Virus record (IMG/VR): IMGVR_UViG_3300031669_005808
Length of the DNA stretch: 64,000 nt
Strand: one strand, 5' to 3'
DNA from: a virus
Part shown: positions 4,921 through 61,017 of the stretch, in pieces
Numbering within the stretch: the stretch's first letter is position 1
Layout: the number at the start of each line of letters is the position of its first letter
Position numbers and translations under genes: made by a program
The notes under the pieces: generated by a model
Told to the model about the DNA's origin: nothing
The model's input: the letters and a program-made list of their open reading frames with translations, nothing else
Database searches by the model: none

Positions 4921-6294
4921 CTAACTTAATAAGGCGTTACAGGTTGGACATATTTTCACAATAGATCTCATATAATTTTCATACTGATCAACCTCATTTT
5001 TGCCTACCTCATTCGTTTCTATATCCTTCTGTATGTCACTTAATGATCCCTCCAAAGTACTAATATGATCCACAAGATCCTGAATATCAATTATACCATC
5101 TTTGCACTCAATTATATGCAAGAACGTATCCAATACAGGAATTATACTTTGTAACTCTCGATCTATTGAGCCTATGGAGTAATCTAGAGAATTATATGCC
5201 TGGATCTGATCCATAACCCCACAAATTTGATTAAACCCAGAGGTATACATCTCCATAACTTCTCCTAATTTCCTATGAATCTCATATTCTGAATGATAAC
5301 GGATTAAGAAATTATCCACTTCAGAATATTCCTGAGATATCTTTGAGATATCTTTATATCCTAAAAAGATATCTATATACTCAAATAACGCGACATTTAA
5401 TTGAGAGGAGTAGTTATAATCTCTCTCAATAATATTAAGCTCATATTGATTCTGAACTAGATTTGCACTCATTGAGATCATGCCTATGTACTCAATGAGA
5501 TCCTCAATATAATTATTTATATTCTTCCCCAAAGTATTCGTGAAATCCGACTCTTTTTGAAGTCTAAATATCTCCATCCCCAGACTATTTAGATTATCAA
5601 AATCCTTGGCCACCCGATTATATAATTCAAGAGAATTCTTACATACATCATACTCCTTAGTTAATGCCTCTAAAATAGATATCTTATTGAAGATATTTTT
5701 ATGTTCTTCTTCAGCCTTTGAAAGTTTTTCATTATTCTCCAGAATCTGAATCTCATTATCCTCGAACTGCCGATTCAACTTGATAGAATCGGCAGTGATC
5801 TTCCTGAGAGCATTCTCATATCTAGTTACATTGAATATCTTATTAAAAAATGAAGTTACTAAAACATCTGATTGGGACACCAGGAACAAAGTATCGTGTT
5901 GTTCTTGAAAATTCAGGTTAAACTTATCCCCCCGCTCAGTCTCCACGATATCAAACCCTAGCTTTATAATCTCCTCCGGAATACTCTTCCCCATCTTTGG
6001 ATAAAATTTATCTTCTTGGTCATCACTGAAAGAGATCCTATAGCTATTCACACTAGCACTTTTCTCTTTCACTATCCTCCGTACCATGCAACCCTCCTTG
6101 AACTCAACAGTCAAGATACATTTCTTCGCCCCTCTCCTAAGATATGTATCCTCCCACTCATTATAAAATAATGCTTGAAGAGCTCTAAAGATTGCACTTT
6201 TTCCTCTATCCGAGGGCCCCACAATTGAAGTCAATCCATCAAACTCAAAAACCTCATCTTTGATGGATTGAAAATTCTGTATATGAAATATCAT
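4921..6294 (-). CDS. SbcC/Rad50 N-terminal half (Walker A, coiled coil, zinc hook)
   Basis: IQNFQSI, Walker A GPSDRGKS, Q-loop NFQEQHD and a long coiled coil. Ends at the CPTC zinc hook with no Walker B or signature motif. Confidence 0.8.
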   Translation of the reverse strand: MIFHIQNFQSIKDEVFEFDGLTSIVGPSDRGKSAIFRALQALFYNEWEDTYLRRGAKKCILTVEFKEGCMVRRIVKEKSASVNSYRISFSDDQEDKFYPKMGKSIPEEIIKLGFDIVETERGDKFNLNFQEQHDTLFLVSQSDVLVTSFFNKIFNVTRYENALRKITADSIKLNRQFEDNEIQILENNEKLSKAEEEHKNIFNKISILEALTKEYDVCKNSLELYNRVAKDFDNLNSLGMEIFRLQKESDFTNTLGKNINNYIEDLIEYIGMISMSANLVQNQYELNIIERDYNYSSQLNVALFEYIDIFLGYKDISKISQEYSEVDNFLIRYHSEYEIHRKLGEVMEMYTSGFNQICGVMDQIQAYNSLDYSIGSIDRELQSIIPVLDTFLHIIECKDGIIDIQDLVDHISTLEGSLSDIQKDIETNEVGKNEVDQYENYMRSIVKICPTCNALLS

Positions 6295-6296
6295 AT

Positions 6297-6515
6297 TTAC
6301 CTCTCCTGTATATTTTGTATTATATCCCTTGCAAGAGTTAGATTTGCGATAATTCGATTTAATTTATCAACGTCTTGAATCGAATTATAATTTATGTTCA
6401 AATTCACCGTACCCCTCTGAGAATCCAATACAATATCATTGCCAACACCATCTAATTTTTCAAATTTTACTCCAAACTTATCTATCGATATACTCATATT
6501 CTCATCCCTCCACAT
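6297..6515 (-). CDS. Hypothetical protein
   Basis: ORF track; tightly packed and co-oriented. Confidence 0.55.
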   Translation of the reverse strand: MWRDENMSISIDKFGVKFEKLDGVGNDIVLDSQRGTVNLNINYNSIQDVDKLNRIIANLTLARDIIQNIQER

Positions 6516-6709
6516 ACAATAAGTTATATCTAATTCTATCTATAGCTTTATCCATTTTATCCGCAATCTTCAATATAATCTTAGGAGTAAGTCTTATACA
6601 ATCACTCAAACATAATATATCAGAGCCAGAAGAGATTTCCTTGGATTTTTTGATATTATGTATGAAAACTTACCTTGATTATCCCCACTTACATTTAACT
6701 CAAAGAACA

Positions 6710-7995: not shown

Positions 7996-10467
7996 TTAGC
8001 CCATACAAAATTCAAATTTACTTAATTTTAAAATATTATCCTCACAATATATCCTGACTTCTAATTCATCCTTATCCTCCCTCTCCAATAATATTTTAGC
8101 TAAAAATCTCTCTACAAATTTCTCAATATTTCTAAGGATATACCTAGCCCCAAAGGATACATCATAATCATTATCCACTAACCAATCAATAACCACACCA
8201 TCCCAGACAAGTTTTAAATTCAATTCAGATAATTTATCATTTAAATTATCCAGATTTAAGGAAGCAATGCTCCTCAGATCATCCTTAATTAAATCATTGA
8301 AGATTACCACTTCATTTATCCGATTAATAAACTCTGAGGAAAAGCTATTTTTTAATTCCTCCTCAAATAGACTCTTATTACTAGTAATATTATTCCTAAA
8401 ACCCAAAGATTTAAAATTATTCACCACCGAAGTTCCAACATTAGAGGTCATAATAATAACTGTATTCGTAAAATCAACTCTCTTACCTGAGCCATCTGTC
8501 AAACATCCCTCTTCTAAAACTTGAAGAAAACAATTTAGAACCGAAGGATGCGCTTTTTCAATCTCGTCTAATAATACAATACTATAGGGGTTCTGATAGA
8601 CTTTCTCCGTTAATTGGCCTCCCTCGTTATATCCTACATATCCCGGAGGTGATCCTATCAAACGGGAGATGTTATGTTTCTCCATATATTCTGACATATC
8701 AATCCGAATAACCCTATCTCTTGAAGCGAATAATTGCTCGGCTAATAATTTGCTAAGTTCCGTTTTACCTACCCCACTATTCCCTATGAATAGAAAAGAC
8801 CCTATAGGTTTATCTTTATTTATTAACCCCACCCTGGACCTTACAATGGTATCACTAACCGTATCCACGGCATAATCCTGCCCTATAAGCCTGGATTTAA
8901 TATTATTTGATAATTTAATTAATTCTTTATTTTCAGAGCATACACTACTCACCGAAATTCCCGTCCACTCCTGAATTATATGCACAACATCCGAAGTTTG
9001 AGCCTCAAGTATAGCTGAAGAAGAGAATCGAGAAAAATTTGTTAAATCTTCATACTTATCCCACATCATATTAAACTTAGTCTTTACCTTCTCGAATAAT
9101 CCCTCATTCCCAATAGCTTCATAATACTGAAATCTACAAGTAGCAATCTTTAAATATGTTAGCATACGTAACGCTTTATGAGATAATTTATCCCGTCTTA
9201 CCTTAACACGAGAACACACCTCATCCAAAAGATCTATTGCTTTATCCGGAAAATTTCTATAAGGTAAATATTTTTCAGATAAGAATACAATGCTATCTAA
9301 AATATTTTCAGAAATATTGACACCATGATATATTGAATATTGATGGTTAACAATATTCAATATTTTACGTGTATATTCCGAAGTAAAAGGTTTAACTTTA
9401 ACGATCTGAAATCTCCTCGTAAAAGCCCCATCTTTTTCCAAATATTTATGATACTCCTTAAAAGTAGTGGCCCCAATCACTTGAATATCTCCTCTGGATA
9501 ACACAGGTTTTAATATCTGCATAGCATCAAAAGTACTACCTTGATCTCCTGAACCTGTCCCACATAGCATATGTATTTCATCAATAAACAAAATTATATT
9601 TTTTGCCTTAACTACATCCTGAATGATATTTTCTAATCGCTCCTCAAATTGGCCTCTCCACTTTGTACCTGCCACAACAGAATTCAAATTCAAGGATACT
9701 ACTCTGCTATAATATAAATCAGCAGGTACATTATGCACTACAATTCTTTTGGCTAATCCCTCAACTAAAGCCGTCTTTCCAACTCCAGGTTCCCCCAGAA
9801 TGATTACATTACGTTTCATCTTCTTACAAAGGGTTTGGATTACTTTACTTATCTCCTTCTCTCTACCTAAAAAAGGAGGGAATTTACTCTCTTGAGCCCT
9901 AATAGTATAATCCACGGAATATTTATCCAAAAATTCTGTTTTTATATTTTTCGGCTTCAAAGGGGTTCTCTTAACGGATTCGGATTCAACTATATCCATC
10001 CCTCTTGAACGAGATAACTCCGGACTATCCAAAAAATAAATGTTGATCATGATCATTTCGGAATATTCTTCTATAAAGTAGTTCGGAAAAATCTCAGGAG
10101 CCAATTTCAAAGCCGCTACAAAGAGATTAATAGTATTTGCCTGTTGAAAATTCAATTTTTTAGCTTCGTCTACTGCAACCTCTAATAAAGCTTTAGCTTT
10201 ATCGTGAAAAGAGATATCCCTATTATCATCATTATTTCGCACTTTCTCATTATATACATAATTATCAGAATCAGACATTTTCTTAATTAATTTATCAACA
10301 TTGATATGCAATTCATTTAACAAAGAAGAGACTTCAAAAAAATCTTTTTGAAGTAATGTCAATATAAGATTCTCCGGAGATATGTATTTAAGATTGGATA
10401 TCAAACAAGATTGTCTTGTATGAATGATAGATTCTCTAACCTTATCCGTAAATTGTTCAATAAACAT
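7996..10467 (-). CDS. clpC: ClpA/ClpC-type AAA+ chaperone (Clp protease ATPase subunit)
   Basis: Clp-N-like N-terminus; NBD1 GEPGVGKT and LFIDEIH; RNFPDKAIDLLDE; NBD2 GNSGVGKT, LIGSPPGYVGY, LLDEIEKAH; GARYI. Confidence 0.9.
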   Translation of the reverse strand: MFIEQFTDKVRESIIHTRQSCLISNLKYISPENLILTLLQKDFFEVSSLLNELHINVDKLIKKMSDSDNYVYNEKVRNNDDNRDISFHDKAKALLEVAVDEAKKLNFQQANTINLFVAALKLAPEIFPNYFIEEYSEMIMINIYFLDSPELSRSRGMDIVESESVKRTPLKPKNIKTEFLDKYSVDYTIRAQESKFPPFLGREKEISKVIQTLCKKMKRNVIILGEPGVGKTALVEGLAKRIVVHNVPADLYYSRVVSLNLNSVVAGTKWRGQFEERLENIIQDVVKAKNIILFIDEIHMLCGTGSGDQGSTFDAMQILKPVLSRGDIQVIGATTFKEYHKYLEKDGAFTRRFQIVKVKPFTSEYTRKILNIVNHQYSIYHGVNISENILDSIVFLSEKYLPYRNFPDKAIDLLDEVCSRVKVRRDKLSHKALRMLTYLKIATCRFQYYEAIGNEGLFEKVKTKFNMMWDKYEDLTNFSRFSSSAILEAQTSDVVHIIQEWTGISVSSVCSENKELIKLSNNIKSRLIGQDYAVDTVSDTIVRSRVGLINKDKPIGSFLFIGNSGVGKTELSKLLAEQLFASRDRVIRIDMSEYMEKHNISRLIGSPPGYVGYNEGGQLTEKVYQNPYSIVLLDEIEKAHPSVLNCFLQVLEEGCLTDGSGKRVDFTNTVIIMTSNVGTSVVNNFKSLGFRNNITSNKSLFEEELKNSFSSEFINRINEVVIFNDLIKDDLRSIASLNLDNLNDKLSELNLKLVWDGVVIDWLVDNDYDVSFGARYILRNIEKFVERFLAKILLEREDKDELEVRIYCEDNILKLSKFEFCMG

Positions 10468-14501: not shown

Positions 14502-16658
14502 TTATCTGCCTAACCTGGCTAGAGCCGAACTCCATGAATGCTCATAAATGTGCAATCCTTTAGAATGACAAATAAATGATCCTGGTTCCAAATCCGTATC
14601 AACACACATTTGATCCATCAACATCGATAAACCCGCTAAATTCAATGGCATACCGCTATACATGTCCCAGGAATTGTGTACCAATACCGGAACCTCCCCG
14701 GCAAAAAACAAGTGTGAGGGTGTATCCACACTTAGATCATATACAAAATCTTCCTTACTAATTATACCAACACTTTTAACTTTTTTCTTGTAGAAATGTT
14801 GATTCTCAACTCGTTTAGATTTATCCTTACCAAATTCCATAATATGATGACAACCTGAGGATTCTATTATTCTATTCTCAGACCTGAAAAACACTCTTCT
14901 AGACTTCTCGGTATATATTGAATAATTCTTACCTAATCTTTTCATAATATATGAAAAATCTACAATCATATCCTTACTAGTCGTGGTACCCCCATCCCCA
15001 CTAAGCCACCCATCTAAGAATATCTGTAATTTAACAAAATCCAAAGTATACACAAAATTAGGTACGAACTTCACTTTTGAACCATGTACAAATCCTAAAT
15101 CCTGAAATAACATAGCTAAGAACTTGATAGCTATGTTTAAAACCTTACACCCATCCCTATCCTCAGTATTAGGGCAGTATTGAAACTCTTCCTCTAAGAA
15201 TTTCAATACCCTATTCAAATTATAATCCTTTTTATTAGAAATAGCCAATCTTAGGGCATTTCCCTTAGAATTATACCACCCATCAGCCAACCATAACCCC
15301 ATAAAATATAAAAAATCCTCTGATAATTGATACATCCTCGGAAAGATCTGTTTTTGACAACCTAAAGTAAGATTATTTAATTCCTTCAGATGGCTATCCT
15401 GAACACTACTGACCGAAATATACCTCTTATCCCTAAAATTTTCTGTATACTCCACTCCATTCCTTTTAAATATTGCAAAGTCATCTAAGGTTAAATCTTT
15501 AACATACACATTCCCTCTATCCTTGAATAATTGAAATAAGTCTATATAATCACTAGTGTATTCCACTACATTAGAAAAGGATCTAGGTTCCAATAGAAAA
15601 TCCCCTGGCTCTATATCTCTAGCCTCCATAAGTAATTTCAATTCTCCTCTGAGAACAAATATCCTATGGTCTTCAGTTACGGATAATCCTCCCCCACCGA
15701 ATAATTCTATTCTTATTATATCATTTTTAATTTGACGTTGAATATTAGTAACATCTCCCCACATAGGTTCAAATTTATCATCCACAGACATTACTTGAAT
15801 GTTACTACCATTTAAATGTTGTTCATATAAGTTTTCCATATTTGAACGTAATATAATATCATCCACCTTAGCAAATACAGGAGTATCCCCCACTAAACAT
15901 CTATAGTTAATGAACCAATGAATTTTTCCATCTCTAACACGAATATCCGCCCCTCTTAAACATGGAGAATCTGGAAGAGATAAATCCGAAGGCATTGCAA
16001 TCTGCATTACAATCTGATTAGATTGAGGATTTGTTAAAATATACGCGCAAAGATAGTAGTATTGTGGAACATCTACAAATATCTTGCTTGGAGAAATAAC
16101 AATATTCTTCTTGAACCGATTTAATAACTCTCGTACAATTGGATTACGAGTATCATAATCTATTCTAATACTCTCCATAATCCGAGAACCATAAGTATAC
16201 TGTTCATTTTTTGACAAGCTACTGCCAAATAAATAATCACCATAGTATTTCACAACCGCTGATTCCATTGTGGGCTTATTTAATTCATAATCTTCTTTGG
16301 ACACATAATGATCACAGGGTTTTATTTGGTATAATTCCTGCTCTGGTTTGAAAGATGTAACCCTCTCCCCACATTTCGGACATTTGAATTCCGGGTATAT
16401 TATGGGGTCAATAGGATTTGGTATACCTAACTTTGATTCCGGTATTCTTACGATACGTTTGCTCAAATCCGGATCGCAAGGGTTTGCTATCTCAAATAAG
16501 ATTGATTTATATTCCCTTCTTAAGGTTCCCTCAAAACTCCCCTTATCCACTCTCCGAATGTCAGCCAATGCTCGCTCATCGTCAAATATATCATATATAA
16601 GCTGAAACCAAGCATCAGGGATATTATCCGCTTTAATTATATGTGTGCTTAAAGGCAT
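14502..16658 (-). CDS. thyA: Thymidylate synthase (archaeal-type ThyA) containing an intein
   Basis: YTYGSR, catalytic SPCLR, YR|SWD split by the intein, and C-terminal SKGLHIY. Confidence 0.85.
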   Translation of the reverse strand: MPLSTHIIKADNIPDAWFQLIYDIFDDERALADIRRVDKGSFEGTLRREYKSILFEIANPCDPDLSKRIVRIPESKLGIPNPIDPIIYPEFKCPKCGERVTSFKPEQELYQIKPCDHYVSKEDYELNKPTMESAVVKYYGDYLFGSSLSKNEQYTYGSRIMESIRIDYDTRNPIVRELLNRFKKNIVISPSKIFVDVPQYYYLCAYILTNPQSNQIVMQIAMPSDLSLPDSPCLRGADIRVRDGKIHWFINYRCLVGDTPVFAKVDDIILRSNMENLYEQHLNGSNIQVMSVDDKFEPMWGDVTNIQRQIKNDIIRIELFGGGGLSVTEDHRIFVLRGELKLLMEARDIEPGDFLLEPRSFSNVVEYTSDYIDLFQLFKDRGNVYVKDLTLDDFAIFKRNGVEYTENFRDKRYISVSSVQDSHLKELNNLTLGCQKQIFPRMYQLSEDFLYFMGLWLADGWYNSKGNALRLAISNKKDYNLNRVLKFLEEEFQYCPNTEDRDGCKVLNIAIKFLAMLFQDLGFVHGSKVKFVPNFVYTLDFVKLQIFLDGWLSGDGGTTTSKDMIVDFSYIMKRLGKNYSIYTEKSRRVFFRSENRIIESSGCHHIMEFGKDKSKRVENQHFYKKKVKSVGIISKEDFVYDLSVDTPSHLFFAGEVPVLVHNSWDMYSGMPLNLAGLSMLMDQMCVDTDLEPGSFICHSKGLHIYEHSWSSALARLGR
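14673..15899 (-). mobile_element. Intein (409 aa) with LAGLIDADG homing endonuclease in ThyA
   Basis: Starts CLVGDTP, block B VTEDHRIF, LAGLIDADG-like FMGLWLADG and FLDGWLSGDG, ends VYDLSV...VLVHN followed by Ser+1. Confidence 0.92.
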
Positions 16659-52605: not shown

Positions 52606-53040
52606 TTAATCACTCAATGGCATTATCACAAAGATCAATTGATTCTCATATCTCCCAATAAGAATTCTATCCTCTGTTAAAGACCATTGAGGTTTCATCC
52701 TTAATTTATTAAGTCTCCATTGAATCCAACCCACAAATATACCATCAAAAGTACTCTCTATATTCTCTGAATTTGTGAATTCCCACACAAATTTAACTTT
52801 ATCCGTAATAGGCAAGGATGTAAAAACTTTACTCGTTATAGGATAACTTTCAATTTGAGTAAACTTAGAGATAAGACTACTGAAATAATCTTCAGAAATA
52901 TCTATATTTTCAGACTTTTTTGAACTTCGGATTAATCCCGCCTCTGCAATATCTTTTCTTACCAATACTTCCTTATACAAATAGTAATCCTTATATAGTT
53001 GAGGTTTACTTTTAAGCATATGATTTTTTATATACCACAT
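52606..53040 (-). CDS. Hypothetical protein
   Basis: ORF track. Confidence 0.55.
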   Translation of the reverse strand: MWYIKNHMLKSKPQLYKDYYLYKEVLVRKDIAEAGLIRSSKKSENIDISEDYFSSLISKFTQIESYPITSKVFTSLPITDKVKFVWEFTNSENIESTFDGIFVGWIQWRLNKLRMKPQWSLTEDRILIGRYENQLIFVIMPLSD

Positions 53041-54347
53041 TATATTTGATCCTCCATTTTCTCTCGCAATTTAGATACCTCCCGCTTATATTGTTCCAAC
53101 AAGTAATTCGGAGCAGATCTTATAAGATCTCCTTTAAAAGATCTTATATATCTACTGGATGTTAAATATAATTTCTTCCTCGCCCTGGTTATCAAAACAT
53201 AAAATACACACTTATTTGAGAAATCCCAATCATCCACCGTAACATAGGATTTCAAATGAACCCCAAATATATAATCATTCTCCTTTCCCTTATATGAATG
53301 TACTGTGTACAATGTTACCGCTCGCTTACTATCCTCAGACCCCTTATCCCCCCGGTAACTCTCATAAACCTCCTGGGACATTTGAATTGTTTGATAAATG
53401 CTAAAGAACTTATTTACTGAGCTATACCTCTGAAATTCAATATCTTCGGACATTATTTTATATATCTTTGAAAATGTAGATATAGTTTTCACAAAGAAAT
53501 CTCGTTCTATTGTAAGGCTTAATTCTTTATCAGAGTTCTTATCCCCCTCAAATTTTATACTTTTAGTTAATATATCCAAGACCTCCATATTGAAACCTAT
53601 AAAAGATATATCCTTTTTCATAAAAGTTTCTCGTATTGGAACCAGAATATTCTCCATAAAATTATATAGAGCTTGATATTGTTTAGTCTTACTCTTCAAT
53701 GTGAATATATTGACTTTATTGAATATCGAGAAATTTATATCTATAGATAGCTCATAGCTAAGAGCCTGTCTCAACTGCTCAAGAAATTTTGCACCAATCC
53801 CCTTAATGGGCTTTATTACTTCACACAAGGCATTTATATCTTTCGGGTTAAACATCAAAGAATATATTGAATACATAACCTTGAAAGAGGATTGATTCAA
53901 TATGGATCTTGAATCATATTTGATGATATATGGAATCTTCTCAGTTATAAGTCCGGCTTCAAACTCTAGTAGTTGTCTATTAGTTCGGGATAATATGGAG
54001 ATATCTTCATATTGGACCCCTCTTCTTACTAAATTAGATATTTCCCTTGCCACATACCCCGCCTCATGAGTTACGGATTGAAAATCAGAAATAGATATTA
54101 CATTATTCCCATCTGGATTATGGGGTACTGAATCTTTTATTTCAAAATCTTCCCCGAAGTCCTCCTTGAAAGATTCAGCCATCTTGTTAGATAAGCAAAC
54201 CAATTGCTTAGGAGATCGATAATTCTTCAGGATATGGCCCTTCTGTGTCCCCGGTAATAACTTATCCATATGAGTCAATATATCCGGCTCCGCATGACGA
54301 AATAGGTATAATGTCTGTCGTGGATCACCTATCAATGTTAATGACAT
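53040..54347 (-). CDS. UvrD/PcrA SF1 helicase, C-terminal part (motifs III-VI)
   Basis: GDPRQTLYLFRHA (III), NYRSPK (IV), ILSRTN, TVHSYKGKE (V), YVLITRARKKL (VI). Confidence 0.85.
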   Translation of the reverse strand: MSLTLIGDPRQTLYLFRHAEPDILTHMDKLLPGTQKGHILKNYRSPKQLVCLSNKMAESFKEDFGEDFEIKDSVPHNPDGNNVISISDFQSVTHEAGYVAREISNLVRRGVQYEDISILSRTNRQLLEFEAGLITEKIPYIIKYDSRSILNQSSFKVMYSIYSLMFNPKDINALCEVIKPIKGIGAKFLEQLRQALSYELSIDINFSIFNKVNIFTLKSKTKQYQALYNFMENILVPIRETFMKKDISFIGFNMEVLDILTKSIKFEGDKNSDKELSLTIERDFFVKTISTFSKIYKIMSEDIEFQRYSSVNKFFSIYQTIQMSQEVYESYRGDKGSEDSKRAVTLYTVHSYKGKENDYIFGVHLKSYVTVDDWDFSNKCVFYVLITRARKKLYLTSSRYIRSFKGDLIRSAPNYLLEQYKREVSKLREKMEDQI

Positions 54348-54374
54348 TTACTTTACTCCTCTATTAATGATTAT

Positions 54375-54410
54375 ATTGTATATTCGATTCAAATCATGAA
54401 AATTTTACAC
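54375..54410 (-). promoter_or_regulatory. Conserved bipartite promoter-like motif, copy 12, inside the helicase split
   Basis: GTGTAAAATT-N12-ATCGAATA-TACAAT; its GTG-TAA is the stop codon of the N-terminal ORF. Confidence 0.8.
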
Positions 54411-55427
54411 TTGCTTAAGATATCTGGTATAGCTATCTTGATCACAAGTAATCATAAGACTGAATTCCAAAACATCTATATCCTGACTCTCATCTACTAC
54501 ATAATATTTATGCGTATCCCACACCCTATTTCTCGCATTCATATCTTGATTTAAGATGCAAAAAGTTATATATTGCATATCGGAAAAATTCATGCTATTA
54601 GACTGATATTTCTTCTCCATAAAAGTATTAAAAACTTTATAGAAATTCTTATAACTCATCTCAGATTTATCCACATACACATCCACTATATCTCCCGGTG
54701 AATTATCCTCACCCCTTAGCTTTTTGGATATGGAATTCAAGGAGAATTTTTCTAACAATGTATATACTTGAGTAGGATTCTTACCGATTTCCCTAGAATC
54801 GGTAACCTTATCAAATACCCCCCCTCTTTTAAATAATGGTATGCCAAAATAATGCACATCATTGTTCGAATATATCTGATCTATGACTGAGTGAATATTG
54901 TCTACAAATTTCTTTTCTACCTTTGGCATACTAAGAATATTAGATATTATTGATTTAAGCAAATTCCTTGAATGACCCTCATCAATTATAGTTCTCCGTA
55001 TACCAAATAACTTATATAAAATTGCACAGGAGAAAGAATGTATCGTGGATATATGCGGCAAAGGGATATCAGAAATTTCATCCTGAGATACTATATCTTT
55101 GAAAAAGTTAATGTATCTTTCTCGGATTTCATTAGCGGCCTTGTTAGTGAATGTGATCAAGACAATCTCTTCCGGGTAAACTCCATCCTCTATAACCATT
55201 TTCAATGCTTTCGCTAGTAAACTTTGAGTCTTTCCACTGCCACTGGCCGCAACCACCTGAAGTGGCATATCTATATCCTTATTTAAGACCACATCTCTCT
55301 GGTATTCATCCAAGCTGTTCAGTAATTTGGACAGTTTGGATCTGAGAGCTATTGAATAATTATCTAATATGGATATCCCCGGATTTTTAGAAAATTCATC
55401 ATACGTATCAAAAGTTATATCTTGCAT
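54405..55427 (-). CDS. UvrD/PcrA SF1 helicase, N-terminal part (motifs Q, I, Ia, II)
   Basis: LDEYQ, AASGSGKT, ITFTNKAANE, STIHSF, VVDESQD. Confidence 0.85.
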   Translation of the reverse strand: MQDITFDTYDEFSKNPGISILDNYSIALRSKLSKLLNSLDEYQRDVVLNKDIDMPLQVVAASGSGKTQSLLAKALKMVIEDGVYPEEIVLITFTNKAANEIRERYINFFKDIVSQDEISDIPLPHISTIHSFSCAILYKLFGIRRTIIDEGHSRNLLKSIISNILSMPKVEKKFVDNIHSVIDQIYSNNDVHYFGIPLFKRGGVFDKVTDSREIGKNPTQVYTLLEKFSLNSISKKLRGEDNSPGDIVDVYVDKSEMSYKNFYKVFNTFMEKKYQSNSMNFSDMQYITFCILNQDMNARNRVWDTHKYYVVDESQDIDVLEFSLMITCDQDSYTRYLKQV

Positions 55428-56177
55428 TTTTATCCTTTAAATTTAAATAATTTATCTAATCTTGGAGATCGCCCATTTTTATTTAGATTAGTTATCGTAT
55501 CCATCTCTAACAGACATTCAAAATCATCAGGAGCATTATACTCACTCACAAAAACAATATGTCCCTCTCTCGACCTATTTCTACACCACTCCCAAAATTC
55601 AAAATGATTAAAATCTACATCCAAAACTGAAGTACCCGCATATGGTGGATCACAATATATCAAGCTATTATCCGGAATAACCATATCACAATAATTCATA
55701 CACGTAAATTTTACACCACCTAAGGTTTTAGCTTGTTTGACTATAGATCTACTACTCTCTCCCGCAAAGTTCTCCCCTCGTTTATTTTTTGCATACCCTC
55801 CCCACCATTTAGCTCCAAAACTACACAAAAAACCAACAAATCCAACAAACTCATCTTTAAAAATATCCGGATTATCCTTCACACTATAATATAATTCCTT
55901 GGAAACTTCTGTAGGAGGTATCCAACCCTCTTGAACCGCCCTAAGTAAAGCTATCAAATATTTATGCGTATCATTGCCAATTCTTTCCCCCGTAATATTA
56001 CATATAACATTAGCTCCCCCCACAAAAGGTTCTACCCATACCCTATCTCCACGCTCTTTTAGCATTATTGGGAGAATATGTTTTAATACAAAACGTTTAC
56101 TTCCTATATATTTCATTATAATATATCCCCGGATTTTTAGAAAATTCATCATATGTATCAAAAGTTATATCTTGCAT
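55373..56177. repeat. 55-bp direct repeat (55373-55427 and 56123-56177) flanking the Dam-like MTase gene
   Basis: 54/55 identical, period 750; the repeat is the first 55 nt of the helicase N-terminal ORF. Confidence 0.9.
55430..56116 (-). CDS. Dam/D12-class DNA adenine methyltransferase
   Basis: KYIGSK, EPFVGGANV, YCDPPY, FVSEY. The likely start is Met at 56116, since the ORF-track start 56161 lies within the duplicated helicase segment. Confidence 0.85.
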   Translation of the reverse strand: MKYIGSKRFVLKHILPIMLKERGDRVWVEPFVGGANVICNITGERIGNDTHKYLIALLRAVQEGWIPPTEVSKELYYSVKDNPDIFKDEFVGFVGFLCSFGAKWWGGYAKNKRGENFAGESSRSIVKQAKTLGGVKFTCMNYCDMVIPDNSLIYCDPPYAGTSVLDVDFNHFEFWEWCRNRSREGHIVFVSEYNAPDDFECLLEMDTITNLNKNGRSPRLDKLFKFKG

Positions 56178-59901: not shown

Positions 59902-61017
59902 TTAAACTTGGAAAAATCCAATTTCATAAGGTTTGTAACGGGCACCGTAGAGTCCCGTAAGAAATCGAGTCAATATATTTCTGGCTGCAATTATATCTGC
60001 GTTACCTGTGTGACCACATTTCAGGCACCGAAATATTTGACCAACTCGATTTCCCATATCGACATGACCACAGCTTGGACATGTTTGGCTGGTATAATAA
60101 GGAGCTACTGAACGAAAACTAACACGGTTAGTTTCGCAAGCTTGCTCTAGCCTTTTTAACCAGTACCTATACGCCCAAGTGCCGATAGAACGTCGCATAT
60201 TTTTACTCAAGCGACGTTTGAGTTTTGATTTAAAATTCATATTCTTTAAAGCTTCAACCACTACTAAATCTATATTCTTGAACTCTTTTATTATCTGTTG
60301 AACAACTTCATCAATTCTTTGTTTAAAAGCTCTTCGGGCTTGTTTCTGACCTTTAGAGCCATGCTGACACCGTTTGATACGTTCTATTAAGGATTCAGTA
60401 TCTAAACCAAATTGAGCACCATTATTAAGAGATGCCAAAGCTTTGATGCCTGTATCAATGCCAATAGCATTAATACCTTCTTTTTTCTTACCCGTATCTA
60501 TCTCAAAACAAAACTGCACATAACTATCTGTAATGATATACGAATTTAACCTCTTGCCCTTAGATGCAATTTTATTATAATGCTTATGAAATTTAATAGG
60601 TAAATCTAAAATATGCTTCTCTCCAACAGAAGCTACATGTAACCATGCATCAAATTCAGTTGTTTCTTTTGAGTCAACTAAATCCGCTATAGTACACGAA
60701 ACGTACATTCTTTTACCTTTATGCACGGGTATCTTCATCTTATTTGGTTTGTTCTTCCAACGCTCCTTAGTAGCCACTATCATGTCTATAGCTTCTCTTG
60801 CCGCTACTTTACGGAGTCTTGCGCTCATCCAAGTATCTTTTGGCAAGTCTACTATGTCTTTTAACAAGTCAGATTTAGAAGGATTACCGTTCTTCCAGAA
60901 ATACTCAATAAAAATATTACATACCTTACCATATTCTGATAATATGGTTTTAAGCTCATCAAGCTTATGCGCTGTAGCAAACTTCAAGCTACATTTAGTT
61001 GAGCGGATTAGTTTCAT
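59902..61017 (-). mobile_element. tnpB: TnpB RNA-guided endonuclease (IS200/IS605/IS607-related); no transposase adjacent
   Basis: RuvC-I IGIDTG, RuvC-II VVVEAL, zinc finger TSQTCPSCG...FRCLKCG, RuvC-III NADIIAARNI. Confidence 0.9.

Follow-up and report, generated by a model that had tools for sequence, protein, structure and literature searches.

The 64,000-nucleotide (nt) viral sequence analysed here, IMG/VR record IMGVR_UViG_3300031669_005808 (the window), carries every one of its genes on the minus strand; its guanine-plus-cytosine (GC) content is 31-38% and its GC skew is strongly negative throughout. The subject of this report is a UvrD/PcrA-like helicase of superfamily 1A (SF1A) that appears to be encoded there by two open reading frames (ORFs). 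The upstream ORF, 54405..55427 (-), encodes the N-terminal helicase subunit, HelN, of 340 amino acids (aa), and the downstream ORF, 53040..54347 (-), encodes the C-terminal helicase subunit, HelC, of 435 aa. The two are separated by an intergenic gap of 57 nt, 54348..54404 (-). HelN ends in DESQD, 24 further residues and a final V (YLKQV), followed by a TAA at 54407-54405. A second in-frame TAA at 54350-54348 directly abuts the HelC ATG at 54347, and a Shine-Dalgarno sequence, GAGGAG, is located at 54356..54361 (-), 8 nt 5' of that ATG. The N-terminus of HelC is MSLTLIGDPRQ. This two-ORF layout, the distribution of the helicase motifs over it and the 57-nt gap with its additional in-frame stop had been described in an earlier account made from the nucleotide letters and their translations (the sequence-only reading), and all of them are confirmed.

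HelN contains motif Q (Q43), motif I (Walker A, GSGKT 63-67), motif Ia (TFTNKA 92-97) and motif II (DESQD 312-316), together with TIHS 128-131, a 1B insertion and a conserved C-terminal tail, CD(E/Q)DSYxR. HelC supplies the last strand of domain 1A with motif III (GDPRQ with D8 and Q11, plus R17), motif IV (KNYR 41-44), motif V (T348, H350, K353 and G354), motif VI (T387 and R388) and domains 2A and 2B. The SF1A motifs Q, I, Ia, II, III, IV, V and VI are thus all present in the canonical order, spread over two polypeptides. Subdomains 1A, 1B, 2A and 2B are likewise all covered, but the one-chain architecture is broken by the stop codons that interrupt 1A. In Pfam, HelN matches PF00580 (E-value 3e-30) over positions 4-232 of 271, and HelC covers positions 242-268 of the same model and then the whole of the UvrD_C model, PF13361 (E-value 6e-28). 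Both proteins match PHROG 1967 (DNA helicase) in consecutive parts of the profile. The profile alignment to PcrA equates HelN with residues 8-235 and HelC with residues 247-641, and because the halves align in this way the break is placed inside the RecA-like domain 1A, in the loop between the post-motif II helix and the motif III strand (PcrA about 240-245). The identity of HelN and HelC to cellular helicases is only 21-27%.

The gap carries a copy, 54369..54410 (-), of a bipartite motif, which is comprised of G or C followed by TGTAAAAT, a fixed 13-nt spacer and ATCGAATAT, usually then followed by ATAATATAA. The motif occurs 14 times, always on the minus (coding) strand and never on the plus strand, against a mean of about 0.1 copies in shuffled sequence. 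The 14 sites span 59471 to 1160 (for example 51974-51944, 43141-43111, 35623-35593 and 11939-11909, all on the minus strand), and every copy is located 35-58 nt 5' of a ribosome-binding site and a start codon. The copy in the gap is a good member of the set. Its upstream box, GTGTAAAAT (54410-54402), overlaps the end of HelN, the GTG-TAA within the box being the last HelN codon plus the stop; the core, ATCGAATAT (54388-54380), follows after the 13-nt spacer, and a -10-like TACAAT, 3' of the core, ends at 54375. The earlier description of the gap as a motif copy plus the GAGGAG ribosome-binding site, with the motif supplying the first stop, therefore stands. The most economical reading of the motif is that it is a putative promoter, probably that of one temporal class of the phage. 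A simple sigma-70 scan of the gap copy gives TTTTCA-16-TACAAT, a 9/12 match to the sigma-70 type, and a phage-specific factor may read the motif because a canonical -35 hexamer fit is absent. No terminator-like site was seen in the gap between HelN and HelC.

Relatives of both halves were found as stand-alone proteins in metagenomes. A search with HelC returned at least 23 stand-alone C halves of 419-433 aa with 33-58% identity; the matches beyond these were full-length helicases of 640-760 aa with at most 28% identity, and a search of longer proteins with HelC gave nothing fused at more than 27% identity. With HelN as the query, an exhaustive HMMER search yielded about 9 stand-alone N halves, 336-375 aa long and with 30-46% identity (those named are P0121-P0124, P0126, P0127, P0129 and P0130). 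They are interleaved in this search with fused proteins of 760-830 aa (P0125, P0131, P0133, P0134 and P0141), which continue across the cut site as DEAQD, 14 aa, a loop and VGDTKQTLY. All stand-alone N halves stop a few residues past the common tail CD(E/Q)DSYxR, and the C halves start M-S/T/A-L-T-L-I-G-D, as checked in the DNA of L001, L002, L003, L006 and L092. The search of IMG/VR gave a single relative, L001. In the GenBank phage collection a DNA search with the window produced no matches, and a protein search produced only full-length PcrA-like genes with about 25% identity or less. A scan of metagenome contigs with the C-half alignment, using two generic patterns, found only distant helicases with 21-29% identity.

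The comparison of fused with split forms in related phages, which had been put forward together with the sequence-only reading, was run, and it places one split clade inside fused relatives. In the tree of the C part, the 24 split forms make up a single clade (98 in the Shimodaira-Hasegawa-like approximate likelihood ratio test, SH-aLRT), which is nested among the fused proteins P0125, P0133 and P0144. In the tree of the N part, the main group of 9 split forms has a support of 88. The C-part tree supports a cut that arose once, in the ancestor of a diverse clade of large phages, and the claim of a single origin relies on this tree. The gap motif was sought in the loci of the distant relatives and was not found there. 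An origin of the split by the promoter copy, which the sequence-only reading had implied, is not supported: the cut is far older than the motif, and because relatives without the motif have N halves that end at the same place, the motif is not the creator of the split. It occupies instead, with a slight overlap, a pre-existing gene boundary.

On every contig with enough flanking sequence both halves are present, on the same strand and in the N-to-C order. The two are separated by 31 nt in L092/L093 (two samples), where the C half is in another frame, has a TTG start and, in L092, is preceded by GAAGGAG; by 57 nt in the window and in L087/L089; and by 228 nt in L090/L091 and in ENA/Logan contigs of the same phage. 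One ORF of 91 aa is located between the halves in L006, 7 ORFs (2.5 kilobases, kb) in the P0009 contig, which is syntenic with the window (PurE upstream), 6 ORFs (about 3.1 kb) in L003 and 12 ORFs (3.4 kb) in the P0017 contig. In G001, a 224-kb IMG/VR phage, the halves are 4.3 kb apart and the interval includes an ATP-dependent DNA ligase. The C half of the distant relatives is coupled to whichever ORF adjoins it upstream. The sequence-only reading had also stated that the halves share a reading frame. This is true in the window and is incidental, since the halves of L092, 31 nt apart, are in different frames.

In L003 the last intervening ORF before the C half encodes an HNH endonuclease of 117 aa (L003:4657-5010; PHROG 1271, E-value 6e-6; Pfam HNH_2, E-value 0.0016), and it overlaps the start of the C half. 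The intervening ORFs other than this one have no family and are unrelated to each other. No endonuclease was seen in the 57-nt gap at the window junction. From these arrangements the junction appears to be a hot spot for gene insertion. Within the L003 contig the N half is itself disrupted, by a stretch of N and a change of frame (792-1454 and 1409-1891). The N half of P0017, of 612 aa (SRR29782968 Logan contig, gene 452-2290), carries an intein with an HNH domain, and P0132 is of the same intein-bearing kind. Depending on the lineage, the helicase locus of this phage group has been invaded by an intein, an HNH gene, a methyltransferase cassette and cargo genes.

The catalytic residues are retained throughout the split forms. 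The Q-motif Gln, GSGKT, TFTNKA, TIHS and DExQD are invariant in 10 stand-alone N halves (29-45% identity), and the Asp and Gln of motif III, KNYR, the T-H-KG of motif V and the TR of motif VI are invariant in 16 C halves (33-59% identity). Strain L087 (a JGI contig) is 97.7% identical to the window over 6.2 kb. Between the two, HelN shows no differences and HelC shows 19 synonymous and 8 non-synonymous ones, a crude ratio of non-synonymous to synonymous polymorphism (pN/pS) of about 0.11. Decayed catalytic residues and a ratio of non-synonymous to synonymous substitution rates (dN/dS) near 1, which the earlier reading had held out as signs against it, were thus not what was found; both halves appear to be under selection.

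The stretch is found in soil metagenomes, and contigs of four runs were aligned to the window. Two of the four runs contain the window junction unchanged, one of them being a variant strain with 41 differences, and the 57-nt gap is identical in L087 and L088. In two independent runs, 15 nt of the motif core are swapped for 186 nt, and the same form was recovered from JGI as L090 and L091. The resulting junction of 228 nt (L090:1316-1543, also in L091) replaces the 57-nt gap 54348-54404. It retains the HelN stop, the upstream box, the ribosome-binding site (as AAGGAG), the second TAA and the ATG, and lacks both ATCGAATAT and the -10-like element. The 186-nt replacement has no similarity to the window or to the relatives at the DNA or peptide level, and contains an open frame of 38-65 codons (65 in the frame of the helicase). 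L090 shares 99.5% identity with the window on the N side and 94.3% on the C side; because the divergence increases in this way at the gap, from 0.5% to 5.7%, the gap appears to be a mosaic breakpoint. Two junction haplotypes, of 57 and 228 nt, thus seem to co-circulate in one soil phage population. Since the motif core is missing from the 228-nt haplotype, the internal copy of the putative promoter would be an optional, strain-level accessory. Misassembly at the break, which had been raised as a possible source of the split, is ruled out because the same junction is present in five independent JGI/Logan assemblies from several samples.

Co-folding of the two ORFs, proposed earlier as a check, was carried out with alignments, and it predicts that the proteins bind each other. 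Three runs gave an interface score (ipSAE) of 0.86, against 0.00 for the best of 3 controls; in the calibration, 58 of 80 solved complexes reach this mark, as do 2 of 110 mismatched pairs. At least 96% of the contacts are shared between the runs, and the predicted local distance difference test (pLDDT) score of the partner is at least 82. Residues 1-9 of HelC are predicted to contact two strands of HelN, the one preceding the P-loop (55-58) and that of Walker B (309-311), and the HelN tail, residues 329-339, is also predicted to contact HelC. The model supports a domain 1A sheet that is recreated by beta-strand complementation. In the proposed assembly, the N-terminal strand of HelC would take a place in the HelN sheet with the P-loop strand on one side and that of Walker B on the other, and the conserved HelN tail would add further contacts to HelC. 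Neither half would be able to form the ATP site alone; the two together would make a heterodimer, held non-covalently, whose composite ATPase site is normal.

It is very probable, in our judgement, that the two ORFs represent a UvrD/PcrA-like SF1A helicase that is split by nature and produced as two polypeptides, an ancient and functional gene in pieces. The heterodimer assembling in trans, one of the two possibilities offered by the sequence-only reading, is well supported by the conserved cut, the single split clade and the invariant motifs in both halves, and is backed as well by the co-occurrence of the halves, the low pN/pS and the co-fold, which passed its controls. Several points weigh against it. 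The N-part tree does not contain a single split clade: P0136 and P0143 stand beside a fused form, and P0130 and P0138 take no resolved position. These short N proteins outside the main group may be truncated gene calls, or may reflect a second split or a re-fusion. The co-fold may mislead because the one-chain structures of PcrA, UvrD and Rep are solved, and its pass may reflect likeness to these structures in the training data. What is said here of protein production, assembly and helicase activity comes from the sequence and the co-fold, and an origin of the split by homing-endonuclease invasion draws on a single relative, L003.

The same junction could be that of a recent pseudogene, in which a promoter cassette or a nonsense mutation broke an intact helicase gene whose pieces are now decaying. 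Two in-frame stops are present in the gap, the halves share a frame at a distance of 57 nt, the motif provides the first stop, and a methyltransferase cassette also strikes the 5' end of the gene. This explanation is contradicted because the cut is inherited and both halves are under selection. The cut is at the same residue in relatives down to 30-33% identity, the catalytic residues of both halves and the pN/pS of HelC show no decay, relatives that lack the motif have N halves with the same end point, and the halves of L092 are in different frames, so that a recently broken gene is highly improbable. Another possibility is that one polypeptide is restored by stop read-through, by ribosomal bypass or by split-intein trans-splicing. 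The bypass gap of T4 gene 60 is 50 nt, and the shared frame and 57-nt gap of the window resemble it. The first residue of the HelN tail is Cys, which is also how inteins start. This genome has inteins (ThyA), as does the N half of one relative, and split-intein fractured genes are known for phage helicases of another family (PMC2677866). On the other side, of the two TAA stops the second abuts the ATG, which leaves no codon for a landing ribosome to continue, and in relatives the halves either differ in frame, at a distance of 31 nt, or have other genes between them, over as much as 4.3 kb. No intein domain was found by Pfam in HelN or HelC. HelC is helicase sequence from its very start, two residues ahead of the motif III strand, which leaves no room for a C-intein, and the HelN tail is only 13 aa long, its Cys being Ser, Ala or Thr in relatives. 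Programmed bypass was rejected on the TAA directly before the ATG and on a gap length and frame that are not conserved in relatives, and a split intein on the absence of both N-intein and C-intein from the ends of the halves. Restoration of a single chain is, on this evidence, barely credible.

It is also improbable, though less so, that the halves have separate jobs, HelC acting alone from its own promoter (for example by poisoning host UvrD/PcrA, or by binding DNA or a partner) and HelN being a separate ATP-binding protein. A full motif copy directly 5' of HelC, with no terminator-like site, would permit unequal amounts of the two proteins, and kilobases separate the halves in many relatives, where each could be under its own regulation. 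The motif core is, however, missing from a co-circulating haplotype of the same phage, and the relatives lack the motif, their C half being coupled to the upstream ORF instead. A HelC that is expressed early and is dominant-negative toward host UvrD/PcrA, the other possibility in the sequence-only reading, is weakened by these same two observations and by the ATPase and DNA motifs that HelC retains in full, which would matter only to a whole enzyme; a motif copy that is a strain-level accessory argues against a separate, promoter-dependent role of HelC. The C halves keep the Gln of motif III, the Arg of motifs IV and VI and motif V, the N halves keep Walker A and Walker B, and such invariance in both halves is the pattern expected only if a composite ATP site forms. 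Furthermore, the halves always co-occur, in the N-to-C order.

For the heterodimeric helicase, the split probably originated, by analogy with other phage genes in pieces, in the invasion of a free-standing homing endonuclease. After the split, the junction would have served as an insertion site for other genes. The window junction would represent a minimal, 57-nt state with a ribosome-binding site and, in this haplotype only, a promoter-like motif, which probably adds a second start for HelC transcripts on top of read-through from upstream. A more far-reaching proposal, which we regard as unlikely, is that the cut is used: the junction would be a heritable landing pad for cargo, and the helicase activity would be gated by the assembly of two subunits made from different promoters. 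Homing endonucleases and other mobile DNA would repeatedly deposit ligase, phosphoesterase, small ORFs and promoters at the junction, since the two halves on either side have to be kept together and expressed. In the haplotype of the window, gating would be brought about by transcription of HelC from the added internal promoter. If this were true, the phage could time its helicase activity in the course of infection with no regulator dedicated to it.

Several neighbouring loci complete the description of the window. A cassette encoding a D12-class adenine methyltransferase (55373..56177 (-), PF02086) is inserted 55 nt into the 5' end of HelN and is flanked by copies of that end, 56177-56123 and 55427-55373, which are identical at 54 of 55 positions. 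The cassette belongs to the context and is not part of the helicase split. A contig of run X4 joins 55372 to 56123, omitting 750 nt, and X4 has methyltransferase contigs too; either a phage form without the methyltransferase is present alongside the form with it, or the assembler crossed the repeat in X4. A 371-aa ORF at 59902-61017 (-), just upstream of a motif copy, contains a Cas12f1-like TNB domain (TnpB-type, E-value 7e-18) and appears to be a transposon-type nuclease inside the phage. Two further minus-strand loci, 14502-16658 and 7996-10467, encode a thymidylate synthase with a LAGLIDADG-like intein and an 823-aa ClpB-like double AAA+ protein, respectively. The window also encodes homologues of RecA, RtcB, PurE and PurC. 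In an ENA contig of ERZ27256828 (24 kb, another strain of the same phage), a 435-aa BCS1-like AAA protein (gene 5329-6636) and a 55-aa ORF are inserted downstream of the helicase module; the window has neither.

SF1A helicases are textbook single-chain motors, in which the ATP site and the DNA track depend on an intact RecA-like domain 1A. The helicase described here is like PcrA, UvrD and Rep (PDB 1PJR/3PJR, 2IS1 and 1UAA) in having all SF1A motifs in the canonical order and a predicted 1A sheet. It is unlike them in that they are single chains of 650-730 aa, whereas here there are two chains and a clade-specific HelN tail. A clade that is cut inside 1A and yet retains every catalytic residue would mean that two proteins can form the motor core between them through strand complementation, and it would offer a natural design for split or conditionally assembled helicases. 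In annotation, both ORFs are best named subunits of one helicase, rather than a pseudogene or two unrelated helicase-domain proteins.

That phage enzymes in pieces work as non-covalent complexes is a known principle. The nrdA gene of Aeromonas phage Aeh1 is in pieces through a homing endonuclease gene that is free-standing and of the HNH type, and the split DNA polymerase genes of T4-like phages are further genes in pieces (PMC2677866). As in these cases, an essential DNA-metabolism enzyme of a large phage is encoded by two collinear ORFs on the same strand with all catalytic residues kept, its reassembly is presumed to be non-covalent, and an HNH gene is found at the cut, in the L003 relative. 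The junction here has its own translation signals and possibly transcription signals. The present case differs in that the enzyme is a UvrD/PcrA SF1A helicase cut inside the RecA-fold sheet and not between domains, in that the split appears ancient and clade-wide, and in that the junction holds 0-12 unrelated genes, the window having no endonuclease there. A second comparison is with fractured genes, those of gp41 DnaB-type helicases among them, that have split inteins and an endonuclease between the parts (Dassa et al. 2009, PMC2677866). These also are metagenomic loci of a phage-like kind; a helicase gene is divided there into two pieces, which keep their original order and orientation, and foreign ORFs are located between them. 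Their halves, however, bear split-intein fragments and are ligated by trans-splicing; because such fragments are absent here, this enzyme must work as two chains.

The reverse gyrase of Nanoarchaeum equitans is encoded by two genes, forms an active non-covalent complex and is split in its topoisomerase part. Like the present enzyme it is a helicase-containing enzyme from two separate genes; unlike it, it combines an SF2-like (superfamily 2-like) module with a topoisomerase and is archaeal, not viral. This naturally split enzyme is mentioned in PMC4117796. In a limited literature search, neither this clade nor any UvrD/PcrA-type helicase with a split inside domain 1A was found described, though a description may exist. 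The phages compared here would show evolution in progress at such a junction, which by relative consists of 31 nt, 57 nt with a putative promoter, 228 nt or up to 12 genes, and they would add a helicase example to the few intein-free genes in pieces.

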